A stretch of DNA of 36,646 bases from Candidatus Dojkabacteria bacterium (GCA_020429545.1 JAGQLF010000001.1:1-36646); one strand, 5' to 3'. Positions 3,831 through 36,192 are shown, counted from the first letter of the stretch. Notes: generated by a model from the sequence alone, not told the origin. Program-made: numbers and translations.

Positions 3831-3972
3831 TAGGAAATCTTGCTTTATCAGCAGTATAGGCTTGTCAGTTCGAGTGAAATTTGCGATAGCAAATTTTGTA
3901 TCTAGAACTCACTTCTCGATACAATTCTACTTCTCCCGATAAATCGGGATCAGTAGAATCACTCGAAGTAAC
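3831..3972. repeat. structured intergenic repeat, family 1 (cloverleaf-like four-way junction), copy A
   Basis: P1 TTCGAGTG (3869-3876) / CACTCGAA (3960-3967) encloses hairpins 3877-3896, 3898-3922 and 3924-3959. A TAGGAAAT box lies 37 nt upstream. Confidence 0.75.
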
Positions 3973-4000
3973 ACAGCTAGGGACAGGAATTTATAATTTT

Positions 4001-4035
4001 GCTAGAAGCCCGTAGCTAGCAGCTAGTGGCTATTT
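4001..4035. repeat. 5 x 7-nt phased array (GCTAGAA GCCCGTA GCTAGCA GCTAGTG GCTATTT)
   Basis: GCTA or GCCC at 4001, 4008, 4015, 4022 and 4029. It contains the ruvC TAG stop (4023-4025) and shares the 13-mer GTAGCTAGCAGCT with array 756-790. Confidence 0.85.
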
Positions 4036-7310: not shown

Positions 7311-10300
7311 GTGAAAATTACAAATATTAGAAGAAGTAGACAACTACTGCTTTTTGTTTTTGTTGCACTTTTTGGGATTTTACTTATTATTCCCTTTGAA
7401 AAAGTAAATATAATCAATGCAGCAACATTAACTTGGGATGGTGGTGGTGGAGACAACAATTGGAGTACATGTGCAAACTGGACAACAGATACATGCCCAG
7501 GTACATTAGATACTGTTATATTTGATGGTACAAGCACAAAAGATGCTGCAATTGATGCAAGTTTTACTGGGATAGTAAGATATCTTACTATAAGTTCTGG
7601 CTACACTGGTACCATTACTGCTAATAGATCGATTACAGTAGTATTAAATTTTGGACAAGCAGATGGCATTTTTGATTTGACAGATCAAAGTGGAACTTTT
7701 ACAACTACAAATATAACCGGAGGCTTGTTCACCGCATCATCTACAGATACTACTTTCAAAGGTCCACTTACCATTGATAATTCTAGTTATTTTGATGCAA
7801 ATGGAGGTAATGTAATTCTAGCTCCGGCCAGTAATGTAACCTATACTTATACCTGTAATAATACCGTTTTCAATCAGGTAACAATTTCACCTGTTGCTGC
7901 AAATGCTACGCTAAATATGACTGATAGTTGTAATTTTCCTTTAGGTAGTAACCCAACAATTAGTTCATCTTCAACAATCAAAGTTTATGGAGACTTAAGT
8001 GGTACTGGTGAGTTGGGATGGCCAGCTGCTAATTTACAAATCTATTCAACTGGTACATTAACTGGATTTAGTGGCTATAACACTGGTGCTTTGAGGCTTA
8101 CTGGAAAGACACTAGATTGGTCAGGGGCAACTACCTTTGCTATGACTGGTAATCTAACTATTGAATCTAGTGGTGGTCTGACACTTCCCTTGCCTACCGG
8201 TACAATACAAATATACGATTTAACTGTATCAACTTCTAGTACTTTTACAGCTTCTTCTGGGACTATGAATGTAAGAGGCGATATCACCCTATCAAATGGT
8301 ACGACATTCGATTCAAATGGAGGAACCATTAATTTAAATCCAACAGGGAATGTATCTTACGATTGCTATAGTCATACATTTGATTTAATTACTATTAATC
8401 CTGTAAATAATAATATTGATCTTAATATAAACTCTACATGTAACTTTCCTCTTGGTGATAATCCAACAATAACTGGAACCAATGTCGATTTAAATTTAGA
8501 TGGGACACTTTCTGGTACAGGTACATTAACAGCCAGTGCCGATAATCTATTTGTAGTTTCCGGCAGTATACTGTCTGGGTTTGATGGCTTAGAAGTTAGC
8601 AGACTTTATATTAATGGAGCAAATCTAGACCTAAGTAGTTATTCAACCTTAATAACCAACAGTAATTTTGAATTGATTTCAGGAAGTTTTGTTGCACCAT
8701 CTGGAGAAATGGAGGTAAAAGCAAATTTCTACCATACTGCAGGAACTTTTACACATAATAGTGGAACTATTAATTTTTCTGGAACTGGGATTCAAACAAT
8801 AACTGGCTCAACGACTTTTAATAATTTTACAAAAGTAATGACTGCAGATGTATCAAGTAGTTTAAGATTTACAAGTAATACAACTCAAACTATCGAGGGA
8901 GATATGACATTGCATGGATACAGCGATAGTCAAAGATTGAATTTGATTGCAAGCAGCAATACTGTTCAGTGGAATATTGATCCACAAGGAACAAGAGATT
9001 TACAGTATCTAAGTGTTAAAGATTCAAATAATATAAATGCAAGTGTAATAGTACTTAGTGGTACTGGAAGCAACGATGCAGGAAATAATACTAATTACGA
9101 TTTTGCGAATAGTGCCCCAGATGCTCCTAATACCCTAGGACCTTCAGGATATGTGAATGGAAGTTCAGATACCGATACAACTCCCACATTGACATTTAAA
9201 ATATCAGATGTAGCAAATCCTTTAGATACTCTACGATTTAGAATTCAGATTTCAGATACCAATGACTTTTCTAATGTTTTAGTAGATTACACATCTGCCC
9301 TAGCAGCTGCTGGAAGTAAAACTTTTACTGTTGGGCAAGCAGTAGGTAGCGGAACATATAATGTGGGGTCAATTGGACAAACTTTAGATAGTGATAGCTA
9401 TTATTGGAGAGTTAAGACCATAGATAACAGTGCTGCGGAATCTGCTTATTCAACTGCAAATTCAGGGTCAATTGCGTTTATAGTAGCTGGGTATCCTAAC
9501 TTACCTTATGCTTTTGGACCTGCGAATAAAATCGATGGGTCAGACTCAACCGAAGGACAACCTAACCTTTATTTTACCTTAGATGATCCTAATGCAGGGG
9601 ATACTGTTAAATACCAAATACAAATTTCCTTAGCAAGTGATTTTTCTACACAAGTTGTAGATTACACATCTGATTTAAGAGCACAGGGTGTTTCTAATTT
9701 TACTGTTGGTCAAGCAGCTGGTAGTGGAAGCTATACAACTGGAAGTTCTGGACAATCACTAGGGAGTGGAAGCTACTACTGGAGAGTTAAAGCAATTGAC
9801 ATTAATAATGAAGAATCTGTATTTAAAGCTGCTTCATTTGGGGGAATTGCTTTTGTAGTATCAAATCCTCCAGATGCACCAACCAACCTAGGACCTAATT
9901 TGTTAATTACTGGGGGCTTATCTACAGATGATACACCTACATTCTCATTTGACTTATCCGATTCAGATGTAGGAGATACAGTAAAGTACAGAATTGATAT
10001 TTCCACAAATAGTGACTACTCTGCTCTAGCCGCCAGTTTTACTTCGGCACTTAGTGCTCAAGGTTCCGCTAGTTTTACTGTAGGACAGTCTTTAAACGGT
10101 GGATCATATTTTCATGGATCTGTTGGAATGGATCTAAATGATGGTGACTATTATTGGAGGGTTAAAGCAATAGATAGCAATGGTGTTGAAGGTACTTACA
10201 CACTAGCTAACGCTGGTGGAATTGCCTTTTCAGTTGGAGGTAATCCGCCAGATACACCTTCCTCTCCAGGTCCAGTAAATCTAATAAATGGTTCTGTAAT

Positions 10301-12170
10301 TCAACAGCAGCAGCCTAGCTTTACCTTTTATATTTCAGATCCAGATTTAGATCAAGTGAAATATAGGATACAAATTTCAAAACGTTCTTCTTTTAATCCC
10401 GTTTTAATAAACTACGAATCTGCATTTGGATCAATCGGAACTAAAACATTCACCGTTGGACAAGCTTCAAATGGAGGTACATATTACTCAGGTTCAGAAG
10501 GTCAGGTTTTAGCACCTGGTGATTATTATTGGAAGATAAGGGCAATTGATATATCTGAATTGGGTTCTCCGTATCTAATACCAAATGGAGCCAATGTTGC
10601 TTTCACGGTATCCAGTGATAATGCAAACTCAGACACTCCATTAGAATATGTACCTGAATTACCAGCAGAGGTAGTTGTAGAGGTAGAAGAAAGTACGTCA
10701 AATGAAGAATCTACAAGTTCTGGCTCTGGTTCATCTTCATCACAACCTACTATAAAATTGAATTTATCAGACTCAAACTCATCTCAACAACTCCAATTTC
10801 AAATTGAGATCGACAATGAATCAGACTATGAAGATCCAGAAGTAATTTATAAGTCCGGATTGATGGAACAAGGTGAGGCTAGTTTTGTTGTGGGTCAGAC
10901 AACTGGTGATGGCCAATATTTAAATGGTTCTGAAGGACAAATATTGGGAGCTGGCGATTATTATGTACGAGCAAAAACTATTGATGAAAAGAGTAATGAG
11001 TCCGAATATTTTTATATAAATAATGGTAGTGTTGCATTTATAATCACTCCATCGTCAGAGTTGGAAATTATTCCCCCTACTGAAATTTCTACTAACAATA
11101 ACCCAACCAGTCCTGGAAATGATAGCGAAGGAATAAATAACCTAAGTGATTTGCATGATGTCCAGATTGAGCAAAATGGCCTAAATGCTATAGGTGAAGA
11201 AAATTCACCAGGTGATGTTTCAGCATCAGCACAAGAAGTTTATGTAGAAACAAAAACACTTGCAAAAGCTTTTACTGAAACTATCAGTAAAGAACCTATA
11301 ACCATACCTTTAGCTGTAGTAGCTACCACAACTCTTGCTACTCTAATTGCGTATCCTAGAATAATTCTTTTGATGATTGTTGTAATTAAAAATATGTTTA
11401 GGAAAAAGAAACAATGGGGAATTGTTTATGATAAAAACACTCTATCTATAATACCATTGGCTACAATTAGGCTCTATTCTTCAGATAATAAATACTTAAG
11501 AGAGACAATCACTGATTTTAAGGGACAATATGGTTTTGTTGTAGACGCTGGTGATTATATACTCCAAATAAAGCACTCTGAGTATATAAGCACAAAAGAG
11601 AAAATTAGAATTGAGAAGGAAGAAGACTTGTTAACAAGCGACATTGAGCTAAATAAAAGTAACAAAAAAAGAATGTCCATCTTCAAAAAAATACAGAAGT
11701 CTATGCGAGAACGATTGCCTTCTATTTGGCAAGGATTATTCTTTATAGGGTTCGCAGTAGCTGTTATTTCATTTATAAATGCGAGTGAAGCACCCAATCT
11801 GTTTATATTACTTATGTTTGTTTTCTCAATAGCATTTTATACGTTTAGATCAATCATATTCGCTAGTCCATGGGGATATTTATATGATTTATCAGATAAT
11901 TCAAGAATATCTAGGGCAATAGTCCGAGTAATTAATACTAAAAATAATAAAGTCGAAGAAATAACGGTTACCGATGAAAAAGGTAGATTCCTAATTAAAA
12001 ATAAGAAAGGAAACTATAAACTAATGATTAGTTCAGATAAATACACTCTACCTGATTCAGAAAATCAAAACATTTCTATAAAAGAATTGAATAATTCAAG
12101 CCTAAAAATTGGATTAGAAAAATCTGCTGATACTTCTAAAAATAATGTAGCAAAATTTGGTGTGTTATAG
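7311..12170 (+). CDS. giant (1619 aa) repeat-rich cell-surface protein with C-terminal membrane-embedded module
   Basis: GTG start and an N-terminal signal/anchor helix. LTWDGGGGDNNWSTCANWT motif followed by a T/S/G/N-rich beta-helix-like region with ~172-aa modules. Five ~124-aa tandem beta-sandwich-like domains share P-D-A-P..LGP, KYRIQIS, FTVGQ and YYWRVKAID. An acidic/serine linker follows, then three TM helices interleaved with two CarboxypepD_reg-like segments (GIVYDKNT.., GYLYDLSD..). Confidence 0.85.
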   Translation: MKITNIRRSRQLLLFVFVALFGILLIIPFEKVNIINAATLTWDGGGGDNNWSTCANWTTDTCPGTLDTVIFDGTSTKDAAIDASFTGIVRYLTISSGYTGTITANRSITVVLNFGQADGIFDLTDQSGTFTTTNITGGLFTASSTDTTFKGPLTIDNSSYFDANGGNVILAPASNVTYTYTCNNTVFNQVTISPVAANATLNMTDSCNFPLGSNPTISSSSTIKVYGDLSGTGELGWPAANLQIYSTGTLTGFSGYNTGALRLTGKTLDWSGATTFAMTGNLTIESSGGLTLPLPTGTIQIYDLTVSTSSTFTASSGTMNVRGDITLSNGTTFDSNGGTINLNPTGNVSYDCYSHTFDLITINPVNNNIDLNINSTCNFPLGDNPTITGTNVDLNLDGTLSGTGTLTASADNLFVVSGSILSGFDGLEVSRLYINGANLDLSSYSTLITNSNFELISGSFVAPSGEMEVKANFYHTAGTFTHNSGTINFSGTGIQTITGSTTFNNFTKVMTADVSSSLRFTSNTTQTIEGDMTLHGYSDSQRLNLIASSNTVQWNIDPQGTRDLQYLSVKDSNNINASVIVLSGTGSNDAGNNTNYDFANSAPDAPNTLGPSGYVNGSSDTDTTPTLTFKISDVANPLDTLRFRIQISDTNDFSNVLVDYTSALAAAGSKTFTVGQAVGSGTYNVGSIGQTLDSDSYYWRVKTIDNSAAESAYSTANSGSIAFIVAGYPNLPYAFGPANKIDGSDSTEGQPNLYFTLDDPNAGDTVKYQIQISLASDFSTQVVDYTSDLRAQGVSNFTVGQAAGSGSYTTGSSGQSLGSGSYYWRVKAIDINNEESVFKAASFGGIAFVVSNPPDAPTNLGPNLLITGGLSTDDTPTFSFDLSDSDVGDTVKYRIDISTNSDYSALAASFTSALSAQGSASFTVGQSLNGGSYFHGSVGMDLNDGDYYWRVKAIDSNGVEGTYTLANAGGIAFSVGGNPPDTPSSPGPVNLINGSVIQQQQPSFTFYISDPDLDQVKYRIQISKRSSFNPVLINYESAFGSIGTKTFTVGQASNGGTYYSGSEGQVLAPGDYYWKIRAIDISELGSPYLIPNGANVAFTVSSDNANSDTPLEYVPELPAEVVVEVEESTSNEESTSSGSGSSSSQPTIKLNLSDSNSSQQLQFQIEIDNESDYEDPEVIYKSGLMEQGEASFVVGQTTGDGQYLNGSEGQILGAGDYYVRAKTIDEKSNESEYFYINNGSVAFIITPSSELEIIPPTEISTNNNPTSPGNDSEGINNLSDLHDVQIEQNGLNAIGEENSPGDVSASAQEVYVETKTLAKAFTETISKEPITIPLAVVATTTLATLIAYPRIILLMIVVIKNMFRKKKQWGIVYDKNTLSIIPLATIRLYSSDNKYLRETITDFKGQYGFVVDAGDYILQIKHSEYISTKEKIRIEKEEDLLTSDIELNKSNKKRMSIFKKIQKSMRERLPSIWQGLFFIGFAVAVISFINASEAPNLFILLMFVFSIAFYTFRSIIFASPWGYLYDLSDNSRISRAIVRVINTKNNKVEEITVTDEKGRFLIKNKKGNYKLMISSDKYTLPDSENQNISIKELNNSSLKIGLEKSADTSKNNVAKFGVL
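7791..8822 (+). repeat. internal ~516-nt (172-aa) module repeat in the N-terminal beta-helix-like region of the giant protein
   Basis: FDANGGNVILAPASNVTYTYTCNNTVFNQVTISP..CNFPLGSNPTI..LSGTGEL (from 7791) is paralleled by FDSNGGTINLNPTGNVSYDCYSHTFDLITINP..CNFPLGDNPTI..LSGTGTL (from 8307). A third partial module starts near 8750 (HNSGTINFSGTG). Confidence 0.7.
9111..11046 (+). repeat. five tandem ~372-375-nt (124-125 aa) domain repeats inside the giant protein
   Basis: Units start at about 9111, 9489, 9861, 10236 and, after a ~130-nt acidic/Ser linker, 10743. Protein motifs are conserved but the DNA has diverged, so the duplication is old. Confidence 0.85.
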
Positions 12171-16668: not shown

Positions 16669-16699
16669 AATTAAAAATTGCTTCTCCCTTTGGGAGAAG
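16669..16699 (-). terminator. candidate intrinsic terminator for the vapBC transcript
   Basis: 8-bp GC-rich stem CTTCTCCC-ttt-GGGAGAAG (16681-16699). On the minus strand it is followed by CAATTTTTAATT. There is no U-run on the plus-strand side. Confidence 0.45.
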
Positions 16700-18810: not shown

Positions 18811-19044
18811 TTACACATATTTTGTGTAAGGCAAAAGTGCCATATGTCTCGCTCGCTTAACCGCAAGAGCCAATTTCCTTTGGTTAGAAGCACATACGCC
18901 TGTTCTGCTTGATGGCATAATTCGTCCTCTTGTAGAAATAAACTTCTCTAGTAAAGACACATTTTTGTATGTGATTTGATCCTCTTTACCTTTTAGAGGG
19001 CAACTTGCGACAACTGGTGCTTTGTATTTATTTGTATTAGCCAT
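18811..19044 (-). CDS. rpsR: 30S ribosomal protein S18
   Basis: [50 protein letters not shown] matches the S18 core. Confidence 0.9.
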
Positions 19045-19050
19045 AATTTA

Positions 19051-19085
19051 AGCTGTTAGCTTTTAGTCATTAGCACTTAGCTATT
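19051..19085. repeat. 5 x 7-nt phased array (AGCTGTT AGCTTTT AGTCATT AGCACTT AGCTATT)
   Basis: AG at 19051, 19058, 19065, 19072 and 19079. In mRNA (minus) sense it reads NNNNGCU x5 and ends 6 nt before the rpsR ATG. Confidence 0.85.
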
Positions 19086-19167
19086 TTGATTTGACTAAAA
19101 GCATTTTTCTAAAATATATTTTATTAAATTTATAATCTCTCTATTTGTTATCTTTTTTGATAAAAAA

Positions 19168-19202
19168 GCTAACTGCTAAAAGCTAGTTGCTAATAGCTAA
19201 AA
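19168..19202. repeat. 5 x 7-nt phased array (GCTAACT GCTAAAA GCTAGTT GCTAATA GCTAAAA)
   Basis: GCTA at 19168, 19175, 19182, 19189 and 19196. In mRNA sense it reads UUUUAGC UAUUAGC AACUAGC UUUUAGC AGUUAGC. The first UAG is the ssb stop codon. Confidence 0.9.
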
Positions 19203-19700
19203 AAGGTCTTTTGCATCAAACTCATCATCTGAATCCTCTTCCGTTTGTGCAGGCTCATCTGAACCTTCTAAATTTTCTTCTGGAAGATTATCTTCTCCAG
19301 TTTTTTCCATTAGGTCATCTCCTGCAACTTTTGCAGCATCAACACCCACTGGTGATCTGTCTTTAGAATTTAGAAGAAGCATATCGTTCAATTTAATTTC
19401 TGTTTTATAGTATCTTTCTCCATCATCTTTTGTTTTTGCTCTTGTTCTTAACTCTCCCTCTACATAAACAAGCATTCCTGTTGAAAGTACTTGTGCGCAG
19501 ATTTCGGCAAGTTTGTTAAAAGCAACGATGTTATGGAATTCTGCTCTTTCTTGAACATTTCCATCACCATCTTTCCAACTTGTATTTGTAGCAACACCGA
19601 ATGTGCAAACTACTACTCCATTTGATGATTCTCTTAGGATTGGATCTCTTGTCAGGTTTCCAATTAAGATTACTTTGTTTAAAGATCTTGATTTTGCCAT
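19197..19700 (-). CDS. ssb: single-stranded DNA-binding protein
   Basis: OB-fold N-terminus NKVILIGNLTRDP. Acidic C-terminal tail ending DDEFDAKDLF. Confidence 0.9.
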   Translation of the reverse strand: MAKSRSLNKVILIGNLTRDPILRESSNGVVVCTFGVATNTSWKDGDGNVQERAEFHNIVAFNKLAEICAQVLSTGMLVYVEGELRTRAKTKDDGERYYKTEIKLNDMLLLNSKDRSPVGVDAAKVAGDDLMEKTGEDNLPEENLEGSDEPAQTEEDSDDEFDAKDLF

Positions 19701-19727
19701 GTAAAAAAACTCTCTAATAAGTAAAAA

Positions 19728-20009
19728 CTATTTCTTAATAACCAAGAATCTAAGAACATTGTCCAGTAAAGACAATTCTCTTTCGAATTCATTGATGTGT
19801 GAAGGTTCAATATTCATAGAATATTCTATGTAGTGTCCTTCTTCAAACTTTTTGATTGGGTATGCTAATAATCTTTTACCCAAGTTATCGACCTCTTTGA
19901 TAGAACCACCTTTTGAAGACACAAATTTTTCTATCTGAGATGTAGTGTTCTTCTTAATATCTTCTAACAGTAGCGGTTTATACAAGATCATTACTTCGTA
20001 TGTTTGCAT
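19728..20009 (-). CDS. rpsF: 30S ribosomal protein S6
   Basis: MQTYEVMILYKP start. 93 aa. First gene of the canonical rpsF-ssb-rpsR order. Confidence 0.85.
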   Translation of the reverse strand: MQTYEVMILYKPLLLEDIKKNTTSQIEKFVSSKGGSIKEVDNLGKRLLAYPIKKFEEGHYIEYSMNIEPSHINEFERELSLLDNVLRFLVIKK

Positions 20010-20075: not shown

Positions 20076-20220
20076 TAGGAAATGGAACTGGCTATATTAC
20101 ATATGGTATGTAAGTTCGAGTGGCATAAATTTGACGAAGTCATAATTTATGATGTATCGAGAACTATACTATACATACTTCTCGATACAATCCTGATAAA
20201 TCAGGATCGCTCGAAGTGAC
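20076..20220. repeat. structured intergenic repeat, family 1 (cloverleaf-like four-way junction), copy B
   Basis: P1 TTCGAGTG/CGCTCGAA encloses three hairpins (20124-20151, 20154-20188, 20190-20207). It shares the upstream TAGGAAAT box at the same spacing as copy A. Confidence 0.75.
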
Positions 20221-20225
20221 GAGTA

Positions 20226-20837
20226 TTATTCAACACCATCCCTTCGCCTTAGAGAGTCTGATAAGGTTTGAGAAGACATATACTCAATACTACTTCCAGT
20301 TGGAATTCCTTTTGCTAATCTTGTAGTCTTTATATCTAAGTCCAAGTCTTTTATCTCGTTTGTTATGTATAAACTGGTCGAATCACCCTCCAGATTAGGA
20401 TTTAGACCAAAAATAATCTCTTTTATATCAGAATCAGATTTTAAACGACTCAAAAGCTCTCTTATTCTTATTTCGTCAGGTCCAATACCATTTACTGGTG
20501 ATATTATTCCATGCAATACGTGATATACACCTTTATACTCTCCTGTTTCCTCAATACTATAAAGTTCTAATGGAGTTTCTACAACTAGAATGATTGATTT
20601 ATCTCTTTGTCCATCATCACAAATTTCACATAAGCTTTCATTATCAGTTACATTAAAGCAGTTATCACAAAGTCTAATCTTTGCAGTTACATCTTTTAAA
20701 GAGTCCTCAAGTCTTGAAGCAAGTTTTCGATTTGATATAGAAAGATATAAAGCTATCCTATTAGATAGCTTTGGTCCCACTCCTGGTAGGGAGGAAAACC
20801 TTTCGCTTAAATCTCTAATGCTTCGGGGAAGAGCCAT
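20226..20837 (-). CDS. recR: recombination protein RecR
   Basis: HhH motif LPGVGPKLSNRIA. C4 zinc finger CDNC..CEIC. Toprim domain. Confidence 0.95.
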   Translation of the reverse strand: MALPRSIRDLSERFSSLPGVGPKLSNRIALYLSISNRKLASRLEDSLKDVTAKIRLCDNCFNVTDNESLCEICDDGQRDKSIILVVETPLELYSIEETGEYKGVYHVLHGIISPVNGIGPDEIRIRELLSRLKSDSDIKEIIFGLNPNLEGDSTSLYITNEIKDLDLDIKTTRLAKGIPTGSSIEYMSSQTLSDSLRRRDGVE

Positions 20838-20941
20838 AAAATAAATTCAAAAGTAAAAATTCAAAAATCAAAATTATTAATTAAGTTAGTATATTTTTAG
20901 ACCTATAGTTAACTTCATCAAAGTCTATAGTCTGTTCACAA

Positions 20942-20976
20942 CTAAAAACTAACACCTAAAACCTAGAAACTATTAA
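20942..20976. repeat. 5 x 7-nt phased array (CTAAAAA CTAACAC CTAAAAC CTAGAAA CTATTAA)
   Basis: CTA at 20942, 20949, 20956, 20963 and 20970. In mRNA sense the ybaB stop TAA is followed in-frame by TAG, then four more TAGs at 7-nt steps. Confidence 0.9.
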
Positions 20977-21287
20977 AGTCCTAACATCTCCTTAATATCA
21001 TCTAAATTTGCAGAGTTCATCATTTCTTTTTCTAATTGTTCCTTTGCATCCGACATTGCATTTTTGAACTGATCTTTTAGTTTTTTAAGAATTTTTTCAA
21101 ATTCATCTCTAGAGATTGTATCTGAATCTGTAAGTCCTTCTTCATCAATCTCAATTTCCACTATTTCGTTTAATCCGTTCATTAAAATACTTACCGACCC
21201 ACTTGTTCCTGCAACTTGTATTTTGCTCATTTGTTTCTTAGCTTGTTGAGCTTTATACATTGCCTTTGGTACGTTCATTATTCCCAT
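20973..21287 (-). CDS. ybaB: YbaB/EbfC-family nucleoid-associated protein
   Basis: 104 aa. The MSKIQVAGTSGSVSILMNGLNEIVEIEIDEE core is typical. Sits between dnaX and recR. Confidence 0.85.
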   Translation of the reverse strand: MGIMNVPKAMYKAQQAKKQMSKIQVAGTSGSVSILMNGLNEIVEIEIDEEGLTDSDTISRDEFEKILKKLKDQFKNAMSDAKEQLEKEMMNSANLDDIKEMLGL

Positions 21288-21416
21288 ATTTTTATTTTAT
21301 AAAAGTTATTATTTTGCTAAGTGTAATTATACACTATTTTAAAACCTCTCTGCCCTCCATACATCTTACCTTTGACAAAGGAGAGAAAATTTCGATTTAT
21401 CAAAATTAGAGGGGTG

Positions 21417-22901
21417 CTATAGAATGCTCTCTACTAATTCAGAATTATCAAATGATTCATCTTTAGGTTTTTCTTTAGTTTCTGTCTTAACCTCTTTTGG
21501 CTGCTCTTCCTCTTTTACTTCAACTTTTTTTATTGTGACTTTCGGTGCTGTAGATTTTTTTTGAACTTTCTTTTTATCAGAAGCAATTTCTAGTCCTTTA
21601 ATTTCACTATTCAATCGAGCAGCTGTATCTATAATCTTTTCTACATTGACTTTCTGATTTAGGTATTTAATATTAAAGTTATATTTATTTCCTAAAATTA
21701 ATTTTCCGGAATCTATTGATTCAAATTCACAAGTCTTAACAATAGCCCCTAATCTTTTATCGTCTTTTTCTATTAAATTTCCAAGAGCTTCTATAAAATC
21801 TTCACTACTACTGTTTTGTGAATCTGAATTCTGAATACTATTAGCAGGCTGTAAGTCTTCCTCAATATCTTTGACTTTTGACTTTTGACTTTTGACTTGA
21901 ATTTCTGGTTTATTAGTTTGATTAAAAGAAGCTTCTGCTTGAACATTATTAGATATATTGTTTAACTTAGCTAAGATATATACCTTTTTATTATTATAGA
22001 ACTTCTGATTTTCAATAATATTTAATAAAAGTGGAATTACACTCTCAAATTTTGAGTTGTTTACAATATATTCTAGTGCTTCTTCCAAAAAGAAATCTAA
22101 ATGAGTATCATCTATCTGCATTAGTACTTTTGATAGTTCATCATGGTCATTATTTTCTAAAGAAGATAAAAAGTTTATTATTCCTTCTTCTGGTAACAAA
22201 CCAAAAACTTTATCAATAGTCTCTTCAGTTATTTCATCTGATTCCGATTGGATTACTTTAGCGAGCATACTCTCTGAATCTCTAAAGCTCCCTCCAGACA
22301 ATTTATAAAGTTTGTCAATTGCGCCATCGCTAATTTTTATTTTCTCTTCTTTTGCAATATTCTTTATTTTCTCTTTTAGTTCATTTGATTCAGCAAGTTT
22401 AAAATCTAACCTTGTTACTCTAGATAAAATTGTAACTGGAATTTTATGAGGTTCAGTTGTTGCCAGTATAAACACAACGTGTTTTGGAGGCTCTTCTAGA
22501 GTTTTTAAGAGGGCATTAAAGGCCTCTTTTGTAAGCATATGAGCTTCATCTATAATATAAACTTTATAACCTAATTCAGCCGGTAAATAGTTCACATTAT
22601 CTCTTAGCTCTCTAATCTCATCTATCCCTCTATTTGAAGCAGCATCCATTTCAATAATATCAATGCTATCTTCTCTATATTCACTCAAGTCTCCTTTTTC
22701 TTTAAACATTTTGTCGTTGATGGCATTTGCGAATAATCTAGCAGTTGTAGTTTTACCAGTACCTCTTGGGCCAGAAAATAGATATCCATGTGAAAAGTTA
22801 TCATTATTTATGGAATGAATAAGAATATCCTTTATAGTCTGCTGTCCCTTGAGCTCAGAAAATTTTCTAGGTCTATATTTTCGATAAAGTACTGTGGACA
22901 T
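21417..22901 (-). CDS. dnaX: DNA polymerase III subunit gamma/tau
   Basis: Walker A GPRGTGKTT. Walker B IIDEAHML. Sensor SRVTRLDF. Low-complexity K/E-rich C-terminus. Confidence 0.9.
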   Translation of the reverse strand: MSTVLYRKYRPRKFSELKGQQTIKDILIHSINNDNFSHGYLFSGPRGTGKTTTARLFANAINDKMFKEKGDLSEYREDSIDIIEMDAASNRGIDEIRELRDNVNYLPAELGYKVYIIDEAHMLTKEAFNALLKTLEEPPKHVVFILATTEPHKIPVTILSRVTRLDFKLAESNELKEKIKNIAKEEKIKISDGAIDKLYKLSGGSFRDSESMLAKVIQSESDEITEETIDKVFGLLPEEGIINFLSSLENNDHDELSKVLMQIDDTHLDFFLEEALEYIVNNSKFESVIPLLLNIIENQKFYNNKKVYILAKLNNISNNVQAEASFNQTNKPEIQVKSQKSKVKDIEEDLQPANSIQNSDSQNSSSEDFIEALGNLIEKDDKRLGAIVKTCEFESIDSGKLILGNKYNFNIKYLNQKVNVEKIIDTAARLNSEIKGLEIASDKKKVQKKSTAPKVTIKKVEVKEEEQPKEVKTETKEKPKDESFDNSELVESIL

Positions 22902-22933: not shown

Positions 22934-22971
22934 ACAACAAAAAACCTCTTTTAAGTCTATCAAAAGAGGTT
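22934..22971 (-). terminator. rho-independent terminator after rpsU
   Basis: Minus-strand AACCTCTTTT-gatagactt-AAAAGAGGTT is followed by TTTTTGTTGT. Confidence 0.7.
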
Positions 22972-22997: not shown

Positions 22998-23198
22998 TTA
23001 GTTACTTCTTCTAGCAGCTGCTCTTCGTCTTCTCTTCATTTTTGTATATACTTTTCTTACTGCGTGCTTCTTTGTTGTTTTTGGTACAAAATATCTTTTG
23101 TCTTTTAGAGTCTGTATTATACCTTCTCTAGTTGCTTCTCTCCACAAAAGTCTCAAAGCTAAATCAATTGGCATTTTATTGTTTACAATTACTGACAT
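22998..23198 (-). CDS. rpsU: 30S ribosomal protein S21
   Basis: 66 aa and very basic, with the S21-like pattern ALRLLWREATREGII..KRYFVPKTTKKH..RRRR. Confidence 0.8.
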   Translation of the reverse strand: MSVIVNNKMPIDLALRLLWREATREGIIQTLKDKRYFVPKTTKKHAVRKVYTKMKRRRRAAARRSN

Positions 23199-23231
23199 AT
23201 TTTTGTGTATTTATTAAATAAGGACTTGGTA

Positions 23232-23240
23232 ATAATAACA
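23232..23240 (-). promoter_or_regulatory. candidate extended -10 promoter (TGTTATTAT) for rpsU
   Basis: A minus-strand TGnTATTAT lies about 35 nt upstream of ATG 23198, downstream of hairpin element C. Confidence 0.35.
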
Positions 23241-23266
23241 TGCTGTATAAAGAAAATCTAGTTATT

Positions 23267-23385
23267 CTCCCCTCGAGGGGAGTGGTATGAATTGAGCTTA
23301 GCGATAATTCATACCAAGGGGTGTTACTGTAACACCTTCCGGCCAACCCTAACAAGTTAGGATTGGCCACCCTCCTCAAGGAGGG
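23267..23385. repeat. structured intergenic repeat, family 2 (five consecutive GC-rich hairpins), copy C
   Basis: h1 23267-23282, h2 23284-23315, h3 23320-23336, h4 23341-23368, h5 23370-23385. Lies between the rseP stop and rpsU. Confidence 0.8.
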
Positions 23386-23395
23386 AAAATTAAAT

Positions 23396-24811
23396 TTATC
23401 TTCCAATTATTCCCTTTGCTGCATCTACCAAACTAGGAATAATGTTTAACTGATTAATATCTTTAATTACTATCAATAGCGATAACAACATCAAAAAAGC
23501 AAATCCTGCAAAGTTAATTGCATTTACAGTATTATCATTTATTCTTTTCCCTCTAATAGATTCTGCCGCTGCAATTGCAATTTGCCCGCCATCTAATGCT
23601 GGAATTGGTAAAACATTAAATATAGCAAAGGACAGACTAATTAATGCAGTGAGAATAATAAGAACATCATAAATTTGATACTTTACTATCTCTGAGACTT
23701 GACCTCCTACAGCAAGTGGACCTCCTACTGCTTTTGATGCTTCAGAAAAGTCTCCTGTATCAACCGCGTTAGAAATTAATCCACCAAGACTTTTCATTTG
23801 ATATAGTGCCATATCGTAGGTAAAGGAAAAAGGTGCAAGTACATTATTCTTATATTGCACAAAGAAGGTCTCCTTACTTCCTGAACTAAGGACACTATAC
23901 TCTATTCCCTCTAAATGATGAAATCCTGCACCTAATACTTGATTGTTTACTTTTTCTGGAAGAGGCACCTGTACATTTGTTTCGATACCTAGTTGTTCGT
24001 TATAAATTAAAAAGTCCGCTGTTGTTCCTTGAACTTCATCTAATTTTTCTTTAAATTCCGCTCTTGTATCAAAATAATCCCCATTTATAGCCAGAATTAT
24101 ATCTCCAACACTTAGATATTGAGTTACCTTGCTCGTACTGCTAAATGCATCAATAATCACAGGATAATGCCCGTTAAATGGTAAGTCACCTATAGTTGCA
24201 CTTTTAGTTGTAAGATCAAGTGTTTCTATGTTTATTGTAGTGATTTCAACTTCTCTACCTCTATTATCATCTATAAATTTTTGAAATTTAGCCTCGGATT
24301 CTATCTTTTCTCCATTAATTTCCACCAAAGAATCACCTTTTTCAAATCCAGTCCAACCTAATTCTTTTTGGACATTTAGTATATTAATCGGAAAGAACTC
24401 ATACGATTTTTCCACGTTATTAAAACTATAATCCGCATATTTCTCTGCAAAGAATATTCTGTTATGAGTACTAAGGAAGATTGCCAAAAAGAAAATAGCA
24501 GCTAAAGTATTCATGAATACACCAGCTATTAAAACAAAAAACTTGATTAAAAAACTTCGATTTCTAAAGCCGTTAGGGCTATTTTGAGAATGTTCCCCCT
24601 CTAAACTTACAAACCCTCCTAAGGGAAGAGCTCTAATTCTATAAACAGTTTCTCTAATTTTTTTACTGAACAAAACAGGGCCAAAACCTATTGCAAATTC
24701 ATCAACTGGAATTTTGCTAAGCTTAGCCGCGGTAAAATGTCCGAGCTCATGAATAAACACTAAAAAGCCCAGAATTACAATAAATAATACAACTGTTATA
24801 ATTGACTCCAT
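23396..24811 (-). CDS. rseP: RIP metalloprotease RseP (M50 site-2 protease)
   Basis: HELGH zinc motif at the N-terminus. Internal PDZ-like domains. C-terminal FNVLPIPALDGG motif. Confidence 0.88.
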   Translation of the reverse strand: MESIITVVLFIVILGFLVFIHELGHFTAAKLSKIPVDEFAIGFGPVLFSKKIRETVYRIRALPLGGFVSLEGEHSQNSPNGFRNRSFLIKFFVLIAGVFMNTLAAIFFLAIFLSTHNRIFFAEKYADYSFNNVEKSYEFFPINILNVQKELGWTGFEKGDSLVEINGEKIESEAKFQKFIDDNRGREVEITTINIETLDLTTKSATIGDLPFNGHYPVIIDAFSSTSKVTQYLSVGDIILAINGDYFDTRAEFKEKLDEVQGTTADFLIYNEQLGIETNVQVPLPEKVNNQVLGAGFHHLEGIEYSVLSSGSKETFFVQYKNNVLAPFSFTYDMALYQMKSLGGLISNAVDTGDFSEASKAVGGPLAVGGQVSEIVKYQIYDVLIILTALISLSFAIFNVLPIPALDGGQIAIAAAESIRGKRINDNTVNAINFAGFAFLMLLSLLIVIKDINQLNIIPSLVDAAKGIIGR

Positions 24812-24820
24812 TTATGATTA

Positions 24821-25366
24821 TTAAATTTTTGTAAGCTCTAGTTCCTTCTTTGAACTTAGTTGTTCAATTTCGTTAATAGTTTCATCTACCCTTTTTTGTA
24901 TCTCTTTTGAGTTTCTCTCTTGTTCATCTTCTGAAACTCCTTCAAGACCATCCAGGTCTTTCATGTATTTTTGTCTAACTTGTCTAACTCTTACTCTATA
25001 CTGTTCAGTTACATCATTTAATTCTTTTACCCTCTTTTTTCTATCCTCTTCTGTCATAGGTGCAAATTTTATTCTTATCGAATCTTTATCCACCGCTACA
25101 CTTCCACCTGTTTCTGCAGACCGTAAAGCAGCTTCAACCGCTGGAAGAACCCCTTTATCCCAGACATTTACTTTTAAGTTCATTGCATCTTCAACTAAGA
25201 CTTGCCCAACAGTATTTAGCTTATTCATTCCACCATAAGCTTCCACCATAATGTCTTCTAAATCTGATGCACTAGCCTTTCCTGATCGAATTGTTGTCAA
25301 TTCTTTTTTGAAATACTCTATTGCATCAGATAACTCTTTTTCGAATGATTTATCGTCTATTAACAT
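24821..25366 (-). CDS. frr: ribosome recycling factor
   Basis: 181 aa. TTIRSGKASASDLEDIMVEAYG and the C-terminal coiled region are typical of RRF. Confidence 0.95.
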   Translation of the reverse strand: MLIDDKSFEKELSDAIEYFKKELTTIRSGKASASDLEDIMVEAYGGMNKLNTVGQVLVEDAMNLKVNVWDKGVLPAVEAALRSAETGGSVAVDKDSIRIKFAPMTEEDRKKRVKELNDVTEQYRVRVRQVRQKYMKDLDGLEGVSEDEQERNSKEIQKRVDETINEIEQLSSKKELELTKI

Positions 25367-25367
25367 G

Positions 25368-25991
25368 TTATTTTTCTTCAGATTTATTTACGCTACAATA
25401 CTGAACATCTTGAGCAACTTCAAACTTGGAGAATGATTTTAATTCAATTTTTTCTCCAATTTTTGCAACCATCTCATTTAGGTAATCTTCTACTGTTTTT
25501 GAATCGTCAGCAAAAAGAACCTGTTTCATTAAAACTGATGCTTCATAATATTTATCCATTTTTCCTTTTAGAATATTTTCTTTAATATTTTCTGGCTTTC
25601 CTTCTAATTCTTTTTCAAAAGTATCATTTAGTTCAGCTACTTTTTCTTTACTAACACCATCAACACTTAAGAATTCTGGATTTGCAGCAGCAACTTGTAA
25701 TGCTAAATCATTTGCGAATTTTCTCATATCTTCACTTTTCGCAGCAAAATCTGTTTCACAACTTACTTCTACAACTGTAACTACTTTATTATTCCCATGA
25801 ATATATACACCTAAAATTCCATTAGCTGCTGTTCTATCTTTTCTTTTTTCTGCTTTAGCTTCTCCTTTCTGTCTTAAGTATTTTCTTGCAGCTTCCATAT
25901 CGCCTTTAGACTCTTTCAGAGCTTCTGTCACAGCGTTTATTCCTGCACCTGTTTCATTTCTAAGCTTTTTTATTTCTTCCATTGTTGCCAT
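25368..25991 (-). CDS. tsf: elongation factor Ts (short form)
   Basis: N-terminal UBA-like IKKLRNETGAGINAVTEALKES. 207 aa. Directly downstream of rpsB in transcription order. Confidence 0.9.
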   Translation of the reverse strand: MATMEEIKKLRNETGAGINAVTEALKESKGDMEAARKYLRQKGEAKAEKRKDRTAANGILGVYIHGNNKVVTVVEVSCETDFAAKSEDMRKFANDLALQVAAANPEFLSVDGVSKEKVAELNDTFEKELEGKPENIKENILKGKMDKYYEASVLMKQVLFADDSKTVEDYLNEMVAKIGEKIELKSFSKFEVAQDVQYCSVNKSEEK

Positions 25992-26054
25992 ATGAATTTA
26001 TTATAAATGATAAGTTAACGAGTACCAAGTTTTTAGCACTCAGAATTTTGTTTT

Positions 26055-26176
26055 CCTTCTCCTTTTAGGAGAAGGTGGCATAAAGTTAAGCGTAGCGTAT
26101 ACTTTATGCCGGATGAGGTCTTGACCTCACCTTTCTTTTGCCTTCGGCAAAATTTATCCTCTCCTACAAGGAGAGG
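26055..26176. repeat. structured intergenic repeat, family 2 (five GC-rich hairpins), copy D
   Basis: h1 26055-26075, h2 26077-26110, h3 26114-26129, h4 26136-26152, h5 26158-26176. Lies between the rpsB stop and tsf. Confidence 0.8.
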
Positions 26177-26189
26177 AAAATGTCTATGT

Positions 26190-27170
26190 TTATTTTTTCT
26201 TTTTAGCCTTTTCCTTTTCTTCTTGAACCTTTTCTAAGATTCCTTTTGATTTTCCTCCACTTGATTTAGCCTTTGAAGTTTTTTGTGGAGCTTTTACAAT
26301 TTTCTTTCCTTTGAATGTTTTTGGCGTATTTCCTTCTGGCATATCAAAATCCACTGCTGATGAAGCATCATCTGAGTCACTTTCTTTTCTAATAATTTGA
26401 ACTTCTACCTTAGCATAATCTTTTAGGTGATGTTTTACTCCTCCACCTTTGTTTCCTTCTCTTACTGCTGCTGCCAATGTTTTTACCAATAGCGTAATTG
26501 AAGAAATTGCATCATCGTTTGCAGGAATTGGATAGTTAATCAAATCAGGATCTGAATTAGAATCTATTATTCCTACAATTGGTATATGCATTTTCACTGC
26601 TTCTGCTACTGCACTCTTTTCAAATTTTGTATCAACAATAACCATTGCTTTTGGCATTTGCTCTAATGTTTTAACTCCTGAGTAAAGTCTTGATAACTTT
26701 GCCCATTCTTTTTTCATTAATGAAATTTCGTATTTAGTTCTTCCTTCTACTCCTTTTTCAAATAAAGTTTCAAGTTCTCTTAATCTTGCAAAACTTTCTC
26801 TAACTTTCTTAAAGTTTGTTAACAATCCTCCTGCCCATCTTTGGTTGGTGAAATGTGCACCGCAGTTGACTGCATTATCTTTAACAATATTTGAAGCTTG
26901 TTTCTTTGTTCCTACAAATAGAACATTTCCATTTGCTGCTGCTTCACTTAAGAATTGTACTGCCTCTTTTAATTGAGCTTCAGTTTTTGTAACGTCAATA
27001 ATATGAATATTGCCTTTTACATCGTATAGGAATTTTCTCATTTTAGGATTCCATCTTGATGTTTCGTGTCCAAACTGAACACCTGCTTTAAACATATCTT
27101 TAACATTAGGGATTTCTACTTTTGATTTTGAAGCTGTAGATGGCTTCTTTGTATCTTTATTTTCTGCCAT
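26190..27170 (-). CDS. rpsB: 30S ribosomal protein S2 with K-rich C-terminal extension
   Basis: MFKAGVQFGHETSRWNPKM core. 326 aa, against roughly 250 aa for a typical S2, because of a ~70-aa acidic-then-basic tail. Confidence 0.95.
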   Translation of the reverse strand: MAENKDTKKPSTASKSKVEIPNVKDMFKAGVQFGHETSRWNPKMRKFLYDVKGNIHIIDVTKTEAQLKEAVQFLSEAAANGNVLFVGTKKQASNIVKDNAVNCGAHFTNQRWAGGLLTNFKKVRESFARLRELETLFEKGVEGRTKYEISLMKKEWAKLSRLYSGVKTLEQMPKAMVIVDTKFEKSAVAEAVKMHIPIVGIIDSNSDPDLINYPIPANDDAISSITLLVKTLAAAVREGNKGGGVKHHLKDYAKVEVQIIRKESDSDDASSAVDFDMPEGNTPKTFKGKKIVKAPQKTSKAKSSGGKSKGILEKVQEEKEKAKKKK

Positions 27171-34846: not shown

Positions 34847-34855
34847 TTTAAAATG

Positions 34856-34897
34856 AGTAAATAGTAATTAGTGTTGAGTATTGAGTAATTAGTTACT
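34856..34897. repeat. 6 x 7-nt phased array (AGTAAAT AGTAATT AGTGTTG AGTATTG AGTAATT AGTTACT)
   Basis: AGT at 34856, 34863, 34870, 34877, 34884 and 34891. Starts 10 nt from the MreB-like start codon. Confidence 0.85.
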
Positions 34898-34908
34898 ATA
34901 GTCTTGAA

Positions 34909-34943
34909 CACTAAATGCTCAGTACTAATTACTGGCTACTTTT
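34909..34943. repeat. 5 x 7-nt phased array (CACTAAA TGCTCAG TACTAAT TACTGGC TACTTTT), complementary type
   Basis: RCT at 34910, 34917, 34924, 34931 and 34938. ACTAATTACT (34924-34933) is the exact complement of AGTAATTAGT (34884-34893). Confidence 0.85.
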
Positions 34944-34990: not shown

Positions 34991-35063
34991 AGCTGAAACT
35001 GGGAATTGAACCCAGGACCTCACCCTTACCATGGGTGCGCTCTACCATCTGAGCTATTCCAGC
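34991..35063 (-). tRNA. tRNA-Thr (anticodon GGU)
   Basis: Minus strand: GCTGGAA TA GCTC AGATGGTA GAGC G CACCC ATGGTAA GGGTG AGGTC CTGGG TTCAATT CCCAG TTTCAGC + discriminator T. Cloverleaf with one G:U in the acceptor. CCA is not encoded. Confidence 0.9.
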
Positions 35064-35195
35064 ACTTACTTAAATTAACTTGTCAATTTAGTCTCGCCGA
35101 AGCTTAAGCGAAGGCGGACTATTCCAGCATTTATTACGAGTTAAAATTGTCAACTTAGTCTCGCCGTAGCTTCAGCGAAGGCGGGCTATTCCAGC
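35064..35195 (-). repeat. two tandem 66-nt units, each starting (minus sense) with the tRNA-Thr 5' decamer GCTGGAATAG followed by a GC-rich hairpin
   Basis: Units are 35064-35129 and 35130-35195. The hairpin is TAGTC-T-CGCC / GGCG-GACTA with loop GAAGCTTAAGCGAA or GTAGCTTCAGCGAA. They lie directly upstream of tRNA-Thr(GGU). Confidence 0.85.
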
Positions 35196-35254
35196 TTTTA
35201 TGAATCTGGAAGATTATACAATATTAGATCTTTTGAATGTGAGAATAAAAAATA

Positions 35255-35337
35255 TCCGGAGAGAAGGATTTGAACCTCCGTAGTCCTGGGACGCCTGATT
35301 TACAGTCAGGTGCGATTGACCGCTCCGCCATCTCCGG
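35255..35337 (-). tRNA. tRNA-Tyr (anticodon GUA), class II, with C1:G72
   Basis: Minus strand: CCGGAGA TG GCG GAGCGGTCAAT CGC A CCTGA CTGTAAA TCAGG CGTCCCAGGACTAC GGAGG TTCAAAT CCTTC TCTCCGG A. U8 and U33 are in register. 83 nt. CCA is not encoded. Confidence 0.85.
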
Positions 35338-35342
35338 AAACA

Positions 35343-35420
35343 AGTACCAAGTACTGAGTTTTTAGTACTTAGTTATTTTATTAATTTCTAAGTACTCAGT
35401 ACTAATTACTAAAAACTGAA
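35343..35420. repeat. inverted pair of 5 x 7-nt arrays forming a long hairpin between tRNA-Thr(UGU) and tRNA-Tyr
   Basis: Left arm: AGT at 35343/50/57/64/71. Right arm: (A/T)CT at 35387/94/401/408/415. AGTACTTAG (35364-35372) pairs with CTAAGTACT (35388-35396). AGTACTG (35350-35356) pairs with CAGTACT (35397-35403). Confidence 0.85.
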
Positions 35421-35424
35421 CTGG

Positions 35425-35497
35425 AGCTGGAACTGGGACTCGAACCCAGGACCGACTGTTTACAAAACAGTTGCTCTACCAACTGAGCTATTCCAGC
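35425..35497 (-). tRNA. tRNA-Thr (anticodon UGU)
   Basis: Minus strand: GCTGGAA TA GCTC AGTTGGTA GAGC A ACTGT TTTGTAA ACAGT CGGTC CTGGG TTCGAGT CCCAG TTCCAGC + T. Perfect acceptor stem. Confidence 0.92.
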
Positions 35498-35562
35498 AAT
35501 CTAATTGTTAAATCTACGTTTTTCCTTTCTGTTTATCACTTAAAAAACCAACTGCTCAATAA

Positions 35563-35604
35563 GGTCATCATTTTATAAACGTAGTGCAATAAAATGATTT
35601 GACC
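35563..35604. other. long AT-rich hairpin (9 bp + 2-nt bulge + 5 bp)
   Basis: GGTCATCATTTTAT-aaacgtagtgca-ATAAAATGATTTGACC. Located between the tRNA-Thr fragment and tRNA-Thr(UGU). Confidence 0.6.
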
Positions 35605-35607
35605 GCA

Positions 35608-35706
35608 TTAGTCCCGACAATGTCGGGGAGCTATTCCAGCACTTACTTAAATTAACTTGTCAATTTAGTCTCGCCGTAGCTTCAGCGAAGGCGGACTATT
35701 CCAGCA
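35608..35706 (-). repeat. 13-nt tRNA-Thr 5' fragment fused to a hairpin, plus a third 66-nt GCTGGAATAG-hairpin unit
   Basis: 35628-35676 is identical over 49 nt to 35051-35099, i.e. the first 13 nt of tRNA-Thr(GGU) plus its upstream flank. About 80 nt aligns with 2 mismatches. The tRNA body is replaced by TCCCCGAC-att-GTCGGGA. Confidence 0.85.
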
Positions 35707-35717
35707 TAACTGTATCG

Positions 35718-35788
35718 AGTAATGAATTTTTAGTACTTAGTTATTTTGTTAACTTCTAAGTACTCAGTACTAACTACTCTGTACTAAT
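35718..35788. repeat. second copy of the AGTACT-word hairpin (4 + 5 heptamer units)
   Basis: 35727-35778 is near-identical to 35359-35410 (TTTTTAGTACTTAGTTATTTTrTTAAyTTCTAAGTACTCAGTACTAAyTACT). The right arm has (A/T)CT at 35755/62/69/76/83. Confidence 0.85.
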
Positions 35789-36143: not shown

Positions 36144-36192
36144 GACTATAAACTCAGTACTAAATACTCAATATTCATTATTAACTACTCTT
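36144..36192. repeat. 7 x 7-nt phased array (GACTATA AACTCAG TACTAAA TACTCAA TATTCAT TATTAAC TACTCTT)
   Basis: AYT cores at 36145, 36152, ... 36187 (five ACT, two ATT). The array ends 1 nt before ATG 36194. Confidence 0.7.

Follow-up and report, generated by a model that had tools for sequence, protein, structure and literature searches.

The sequence analysed here is a 36,646-bp contig of Candidatus Dojkabacteria (WS6, CPR), hereafter the window. Around the two features of main interest all genes lie on the minus strand, and Pfam identifies rpsB (26190-27170), tsf (25368-25991), frr (24821-25366), an M50/RseP gene (23396-24811; rseP below), rpsU (22998-23198), dnaX (21417-22901), ybaB (20973-21287), and recR (20226-20837), in agreement with the names rpsB, tsf, M50/RseP, and rpsU used in a first-pass annotation. 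Two of the spacers hold five abutting hairpins each—element C (23267-23385, minus strand), between rseP and rpsU and upstream of the rpsU promoter region, which was recognised through alignment with relatives, and element D (26055-26177, minus strand), between rpsB and tsf. The span first proposed for C was exact, whereas that for D had stopped at 26176. In gene sense, C begins 10 nt past the rseP stop codon (23396-23398) and D 12 nt past that of rpsB (26190-26192). Just downstream of D lies a predicted sigma-70 promoter for tsf (26000-26028, minus strand; TTGGTA-17-TATAAT), with its -35 hexamer 26 nt beyond the end of D-h1 and its -10 region kept in the closest relative.

Read in gene sense, and thus from h5 to h1 on the minus strand, C opens with h5 (23370-23385; CCCTCC tcaa GGAGGG), in which an anti-SD-like arm pairs with an SD-like arm. 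It continues with h4 (23341-23368), a 12-position stem closed by a CUUG loop, in which one position is C.A on the plus strand and G.U on the minus strand; h3 (23320-23336; GGTGTTA ctg TAACACC); h2 (23283-23316; TGGTATGAATT/AATTCATACCA), with an 11-bp stem and a 12-nt loop containing a GC-UAA-GC mini-stem; and h1 (23267-23282; CTCCCC tcga GGGGAG). All five hairpins of D are perfect: h5 (26157-26177; TCCTCTCCT aca AGGAGAGGA) comes first, followed by the U-rich stretch UAAAUUUUGC, then h4 (26136-26152), h3 (26114-26129), h2 (26077-26110; GGCATAAAGT/ACTTTATGCC; 10-bp stem, 14-nt loop), and h1 (26055-26075), again all on the minus strand. The h2 module is shared by the two elements, and h1 and h5 are CUCC/GGAG hairpins in both, as had been proposed. 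The further claim that h3 and h4 differ entirely between the copies goes too far for h3, and the linkers are alike in part as well: h3 and h4 have been replaced, but in gene sense C and D share G(G/A)AAGGUG where h4 meets h3 and AURCCAC where h2 meets h1.

The perfect-stem scan and folding agree on five back-to-back hairpins in identical order in C and D. Minimum free energies fall between -61 and -63 kcal/mol on both strands (C, -61.2 versus -62.3; D, -61.0 versus -61.2), with z-scores of -6.1 to -9.5, and none of 200 dinucleotide shuffles folded as well. A scan of the whole window showed no other run of three or more perfect hairpins placed end to end, and the two elements are therefore a genuine, non-random feature. 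G.U pairs make up 0-4 of the 44-52 pairs, and the two strands are equally stable; in two stems a G.U pair on the sense strand is C.A on the opposite strand. In the gene-sense minimum free energy structures, the 5' arm of h5 pairs with the 3' arm of h1, giving an outer stem around three hairpins, a four-way junction of the same shape as in the family 1 elements described below. A tRNA-like or cloverleaf identity was rejected, since ARAGORN yields only four true tRNAs, as was an integron attC site, given the housekeeping neighbours, the lack of an integrase, and the presence of five hairpins where attC has one long bulged hairpin. A 76-codon open frame with a TTG start (23176-23406, minus strand) runs from the end of rseP through all of C and into rpsU. 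It has no counterpart through D, and it probably reflects a mere lack of stop codons in the GC-rich hairpins.

A shared vocabulary of hairpin modules

The h2 stems of C and D differ at three positions (3, 6, and 9 of the 10-bp stem), and every difference is compensated in the partner arm, just as the first-pass annotation had read them; the alignment tool counts two of these changes, the third being masked by a MAFFT gap and read by hand. Both loop motifs that it had listed, AGCTTAGCGA and AGCGTAGCG, were found, and the loops of C and D alike carry AGC-T-AGCG. A third h2-type module (GGCATAAATT tgacgaagtcat AATTTATG; 20121-20151, minus strand) forms the last inner hairpin of element B. In all three copies GTGG precedes the module on the plus strand; in gene sense CCAC comes next in B as in C and D, ahead of the 3' arm of the outer stem. 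A covariance model built from the three copies (R1) scored 54.8 bits for C, 50.5 for D, and 49.5 for B, with no score above 16.3 bits elsewhere in 80.6 kb comprising the window and the relatives' loci (~44 kb from relatives). A search of this kind had been suggested at the outset, and in the sequence covered it added no copy to the three from which the model was built, of which the one in B is partial. As a plain pattern, h2 occurs three times in the window and 58 times in the whole JGI metagenome collection; we take these 58 matches as chance because none runs on into the CC(A) end of the stem or sits among hairpins. A sigma-54 promoter within h2 was also considered and rejected, as the GG-N10-GC spacing is, by eye, lost in B and D.

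Family 1 consists of element A (3865-3985, minus strand), in the ruvC-ruvA spacer, with an outer stem (UUCGAGUG/CACUCGAA) and three enclosed hairpins, and element B (20110-20225, minus strand), in the recR-rpsF spacer, which likewise has an outer stem and three enclosed hairpins and contains the h2 module. A MAFFT alignment of the two gives ~69% identity, including long stretches of full identity, and on either strand each folds into a perfect four-way junction in which no base at the junction is unpaired. Their YCCYGA-taaa-UCRGGR hairpin shows a compensated change from C-G to U-A. A predicted sigma-70 promoter for rpsF (20074-20046, minus strand; TTTACA-17-TATAAT) lies downstream of B. All four full elements, A to D, sit in co-directional spacers only, 1-12 nt after the upstream stop codon, and their orientation relative to transcription is the same in four of four.

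Parts of these blocks also occur singly. A lone hairpin at 16681-16699 (minus strand; CTTCTCCC ttt GGGAGAAG) is close to D-h1, with a compensated top pair, and the tail AAGGAGRG(N)AAAAT, which the first-pass annotation had seen in C, in D, and at a third site, has three occurrences in the window where 0.04 would be expected. The solo tail (AAGGAGAGAAAAT; 21378-21390, plus strand) lies in the dnaX-ybaB spacer, and the 81 nt around it show no significant structure (z -0.18). Altogether the window holds three h2 copies and five to six CUCC/GGAG hairpins, and modules recur in differing combinations at at least five intergenic sites in 36.6 kb. The blocks are assembled from a small vocabulary—CUCC/GGAG hairpins, h2, and the YCCYGA-taaa-type hairpin—and given this recurrence (h2 in B, the 16681 hairpin resembling D-h1), the "mosaic" part of the initial reading holds.

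Could the blocks be ordinary terminators or attenuators in tandem, of separate origin at each site, with a likeness that reflects a local preference for CUCC/GGAG stems? An intrinsic (Rho-independent) terminator is a GC-rich hairpin with an immediate U-tract on the transcribed strand. The elements do lie at gene 3' ends and upstream of the next promoter, and gene-strand U-rich tails follow both D-h5 and the 16681 hairpin (CAAUUUUUAA comes next on the minus strand in the latter, which resembles a canonical terminator); both were scored terminator-like. The rpsB-tsf spacer of relatives, moreover, holds one or two unrelated hairpins. Against this, D-h5 is the only hairpin of the two blocks with a U-tract: the hairpins of C all lack one, as does the last of D, though the genome uses canonical terminators, as after rpsU (22943-22971; AACCTCTTTT...AAAAGAGGTT, then a T-run). 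The initial statement that neither strand has a U-run after the last hairpin is thus accurate, but it passes over the tail of D-h5. Canonical U-tract terminators, at 16681-16699 and downstream of rpsU, show that the blocks are not simply how this organism builds its terminators, and five hairpins far exceed what termination needs. An h2 module with a specific loop, a GTGG head, and a CCAC tail occurs three times and therefore cannot be convergence. On balance we regard independent terminators as a distinctly unlikely explanation.

Several other repeats share the window with the hairpin blocks. Beside the tRNA-Thr genes (35051-35707), a 67-nt unit is present in three repeats, each running from the first ~11 nt of a tRNA 5' end (GCTGGAATAG) through a GC-rich hairpin to a TTGACA-containing stretch. 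The hairpin, TCCGCC ...GCU(U/G)AAGC... GGCGAGA, has a loop similar to the h2 loop motif, and a fourth tRNA-5'-end fragment adjoins the hairpin CCCGAC aat GTCGGG (35613-35642). These units look like partial tRNA-end duplications tied to hairpin modules. Many spacers also contain tandem arrays with a 7-nt period, of the types AGCTNNN, AGTACTN, AAATTCA, and AACTAAA (756-788, 4006-4032, 19040-19085, 19164-19202, 20843-20875, 20940-20972, 34852-34940, 35344-35417, 35712-35787, and 36146-36189). A TTTGACT array of 4.1 copies (21870-21898) lies inside dnaX, and a 1619-aa predicted surface protein (7311-12170) includes four tandem 375-nt (125-aa) repeats (9323-10551).

Absence from relatives and variation within the population

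C and D are missing from the orthologous spacers in all five relatives examined, while the synteny from rpsB through recR to rpsF is kept in those whose contigs span the region. In the closest relative, GCA_020429495.1 (RpsB 88% identical, flanking DNA 83-85% identical), the rseP-rpsU spacer measures 86 nt and has no hairpin element, compared with 197 nt here; in the four more distant relatives it measures 50-107 nt. Between rpsB and tsf the distance is 198 nt in the window, 114 nt in GCA_020429495.1, and 66, 131, 70, and 49 nt in the others; neither spacer holds a hairpin array in those four. That of GCA_020429495.1 contains two hairpins of sequence unrelated to D, the second of which has an h2-like build—a stem of 10 bp and an internal loop beginning (U)AU, together with a mini-stem and triloop. 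Folding of the rpsB-tsf and rseP-rpsU spacers of the four distant relatives gave z-scores of -2.1 to +1.6, and the range for all spacers tested was -3.0 to +1.6. The rpsU terminator, ~300 nt downstream of C, provided an internal control on the evolution of a functional hairpin in the lineage, and it is kept nearly base for base in the closest relative (L085 2302-2330).

At the C locus we found neither a clean empty site nor a target-site duplication, the sequence adjacent to the insertion not being alignable with the closest relative. As they are absent from spacers that work in relatives, C and D appear to be recent lineage-specific insertions or replacements. Other spacers are also enlarged here (recR-rpsF, 216 nt; dnaX-ybaB, 129 nt; ybaB-recR, 135 nt; ssb-rpsR, 152 nt), to roughly two to eight times the length in most relatives, the exception being the 201-nt recR-rpsF spacer of L087. 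The ssb-rpsR spacer, expanded up to about eight-fold, has grown via heptamer repeats. Heptamer arrays were seen in relatives as well (L008 11047-11075 and 920-990; the rpsU-dnaX and x-rpsF spacers of L086), so these tracts are lineage-wide, unlike the hairpin blocks. L008, from a relative with an RpsB 72% identical, has an unrelated structured element of its own in the ctpA-NUDIX spacer (19700-19800; MFE -43.8, z -3.2); the corresponding site of the window is unstructured.

Within the population, independent assemblies leave C and D unchanged except for one SNP in the linker between h5 and h4 of D. Strain variants were sought by exact-protein look-ups with RpsB, Tsf, RpsU, RseP, and RecR, which returned the same population only, plus a single variant contig, L080 (from a different sample, SAMN08389174). 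Its bases 1-42 correspond to the region 26124-26078 of the window, and it reads from the 3' arm of D-h3 into GGTCCCGACTAAAGTCGGTC, which replaces h2, then into h1 and on through 865 bases that are 100% identical. The substitute hairpin, CCGAC taaa GTCGG, resembles both TCCCGA taaa TCGGGA of element A and CCCGAC aat GTCGGG at 35613-35627. This swap, read from the first 31 bases of one 896-nt contig, suggests that module exchange is ongoing in the population. Assemblies also tend to end here: L003 stops just after D-h5 and L081 14 nt past D-h1, so that three independent assemblies (L080, L003, and L081) break inside D or at its edge.

Conserved RNA or palindromic DNA

A non-mobile structured RNA, selected at the RNA level as a 3'-UTR or intercistronic element or as a small RNA resembling whalefall-1, would account for the same blocks in a different way. 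Such an RNA would fold either as five hairpins or with the outer stem formed by the 5' arm of h5 and the 3' arm of h1 around three hairpins, and its SD- and anti-SD-like arms and GGUG-type junctions could act on ribosomes, RNases, or an RNA-binding protein. The uniform orientation of the elements relative to their genes is in keeping with this idea, as are the junction and loop motifs that persist while stems vary, the closure of C and D into a four-way junction like that of family 1, and the two stems in which only the sense strand forms a G.U pair.

We searched Rfam, a check that had been suggested with the initial description, and at gathering thresholds recovered four tRNAs in the window and no other family. 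Under permissive settings one sub-threshold match appeared, whalefall-1 (RF01762), covering h5, h4, and the following junction of C at 23.3 bits against a gathering threshold of 37 (E 0.0099 in a 5.5-kb search and 4.5e-4 in a 251-base search). D gave no match to it at E values up to 10, and its other permissive output was noise. In the description of this RNA motif by Weinberg et al. 2010 (PMC2864571), a CUCC-loop-GGAG hairpin is followed by a variable hairpin with a CUUG loop and a purine-rich, SD-like stretch, the same succession as in h5, h4, and the junction of C. Its seed members are flanked upstream by more hairpins of the CCCUCC-loop-GGAGGG type, and one AT-rich member of the supplementary alignment, wf1_Contig538, carries four consecutive hairpins, including CCUCUCC-UUUA-GGAGAGG, which is nearly identical to D-h5. 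Differences are also plain from that source, where the motif is defined as two hairpins rather than the five seen here and most seed members come from a far more GC-rich organism. These likenesses raise the prospect that whalefall-1 may itself be a fragment of a larger hairpin-mosaic repeat rather than a stand-alone small RNA.

The initial description had given the compensated substitutions much weight, and as evidence for a functional RNA they fail. In the three-copy h2 alignment, 58 of 500 column shuffles reached the observed covariation, which is therefore not significant. Each of the hairpins is a near-perfect Watson-Crick palindrome whichever strand is read, and a difference between arms is therefore compensated by construction; because compensation follows from perfect palindromy, it is not independent evidence of selection at the RNA level. 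The equal stability of the two strands and the scarcity of G.U pairs likewise speak against an RNA, as do the replacement of h3 and h4 between C and D, the weak whalefall-1 score on C with no match on D, and the lack of the elements in all five relatives' orthologous spacers while the true rpsU terminator nearby is kept. The first-pass annotation had named three outcomes that would undermine its own reading—few copies, a known family, and covariation that is not significant—and the results lie largely in that direction, with one partial third copy and an Rfam match below threshold. C and D are not supported as a conserved structured RNA, and we judge selection at the RNA level an unlikely explanation.

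We instead favour, with a probability of about 0.5, the reading of C and D as diverged, lineage-specific, modular palindromic repeats of REP/BIME- or MITE-like character, situated at gene 3' ends and spread or reshuffled at the level of DNA. Comparative data demonstrate this DNA-level behaviour, and we infer both the mobilising mechanism and any effects on RNA, the latter by analogy with E. coli REP biology. Copies might have been spread or reshuffled by a hairpin-recognising enzyme encoded elsewhere in the genome; alternative routes would be gene conversion between copies, or template switching of a kind that keeps palindromes perfect. Only the short stretch that separates a stop codon from the following promoter would tolerate the blocks. 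As part of the 3' end of the rpsB or rseP mRNA, the stable hairpins, stacked one upon the other, would most likely form a block to 3'-to-5' exonucleases, and they may also hold back some of the read-through into the promoter of the next gene; both effects are known from the REP/BIME elements of E. coli. Liang, Rudd and Deutscher (2015) reportedly found that a REP within ~15 nt of the stop codon can cut upstream expression via ribosome stalling; the stop-to-block spacing of C and D is 10-12 nt.

Several features count against the repeat reading, among them the lack of a clean empty site or target-site duplication at the C locus. The orientation of A to D with respect to transcription is uniform, as would be expected too of a function in RNA, and the modules are not one alternating REP unit, with the GTGG motif partly paired and no unpaired tag at the hairpin foot. 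A bolder version of the same idea—an active, undescribed hairpin-cassette system of CPR bacteria, in which an enzyme acting on single-stranded DNA hairpins copies or swaps modules between intergenic sites, the transcribed SD and anti-SD mimics behind the stop codon act on terminating ribosomes or 3' exonucleases, and whalefall-1 represents a piece of such an element in further uncultivated bacteria—strikes us as quite improbable.

CPR genomes are very small and gene-dense, and to our knowledge few mobile elements have been described in them. In one Dojkabacteria lineage, several spacers have reached two to four times the length found in most relatives through inserts of hairpin blocks and heptamer repeats. 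Taken together, spacer expansion, modular inserts, and one possible module difference between samples suggest that palindromic DNA of a selfish or semi-domesticated kind is still able to spread within streamlined genomes. The neighbours of the blocks are highly expressed genes of translation, whose mRNA 3' ends the blocks probably shape, and the blocks are also places where metagenome assemblies break. For RNA-motif discovery they also carry a caution, since perfect palindromes mimic covariation, and whalefall-1 may be a case in point.

Comparison with known repeat and array systems

REP sequences are described as palindromic units of 20-40 bp that lie mainly downstream of open reading frames, between unidirectional or convergent genes, with one end of the palindrome marked by an unpaired tag, GTAG or CGTC (PMC3733652). 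The hairpin units here, 16-34 nt long and placed 1-12 nt after the stop codon in co-directional spacers, agree in size and position. They do not agree in the tag: neither GTAG nor CGTC occurs at any hairpin foot, GTAG being found only inside the D-h2 loop, and in the GTGG that precedes h2 in B, C, and D the GG is paired in C and D. Copy number is given as more than ~100 per genome for REPs, and BIMEs as regularly spaced copies of one REP in alternating orientations, in the account of PMC2817692. Here the five hairpins of a block differ in sequence instead of alternating a single REP unit; only h1 and h5 are alike, and both are symmetric palindromes without definable orientation. The AT-rich h2 stem and the host, a CPR bacterium with a tiny genome, set the blocks apart as well. 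What they do share with REPs and BIMEs is the packing of short palindromes head to tail in mosaic blocks, stems that vary with compensation, a presence and unit content that differ between close relatives, and, by analogy, the expected RNA-level side effects of 3'-end protection and attenuation. The REP/BIME-like mosaic first suggested for these elements is partly supported, by the recurrence of modules in varying combinations, the position after stop codons, absence in relatives, and the one swap; this support does not extend to BIME membership.

REPs are linked to a RAYT gene, encoding a Y1 HUH transposase and flanked by REPs; we found no transposase or RAYT gene within the 36.6-kb window, and we know of no cognate transposase for blocks of the C/D type. 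MITEs are recognised by terminal inverted repeats and a target-site duplication, with empty sites in relatives. The present elements approach bacterial MITEs and the GC-rich palindromic clusters of AT-rich genomes (Correia/NEMIS, RUP, BOX, the Rickettsia RPE, and the GC clusters of yeast mitochondria) in their length of ~100-150 bp, their non-coding nature, and their inverted ends, TTTTCC...GGAAAA in D and TTCGAGTG...CACTCGAA in family 1. They also form GC-rich patches within an AT-rich genome, are confined to their lineage, and look like insertions when set against relatives; BOX elements are likewise modular. The present blocks depart from these families in their short terminal repeats of just 8-12 bp and in an interior made of separate perfect hairpins rather than one long stem, and neither a target-site duplication nor a clean empty-site junction can be defined for them.

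TIGR stem-loop guide-RNA arrays occur in CPR bacteria and phages and consist of tandem, variable, consistently palindromic stems (PMC12045711), and on host and on stem architecture they would fit C and D. The loops here, at 3-14 nt, are too short and lack box C/D, the window contains no Nop-domain (Tas) gene, and the elements are scattered among housekeeping genes rather than gathered in one array. A TIGR-type array is thereby effectively refuted, and we give it next to no credence. A search of the literature for palindromic repeats in Dojkabacteria or CPR bacteria retrieved nothing relevant, and the family 1 pattern had at least 10 matches in GTDB genomes, all of them chance occurrences in unrelated phyla. 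REP-type repeats themselves are known; what is new here is the presence in a CPR genome of palindromic mosaic repeats that are built from heterogeneous hairpin modules.
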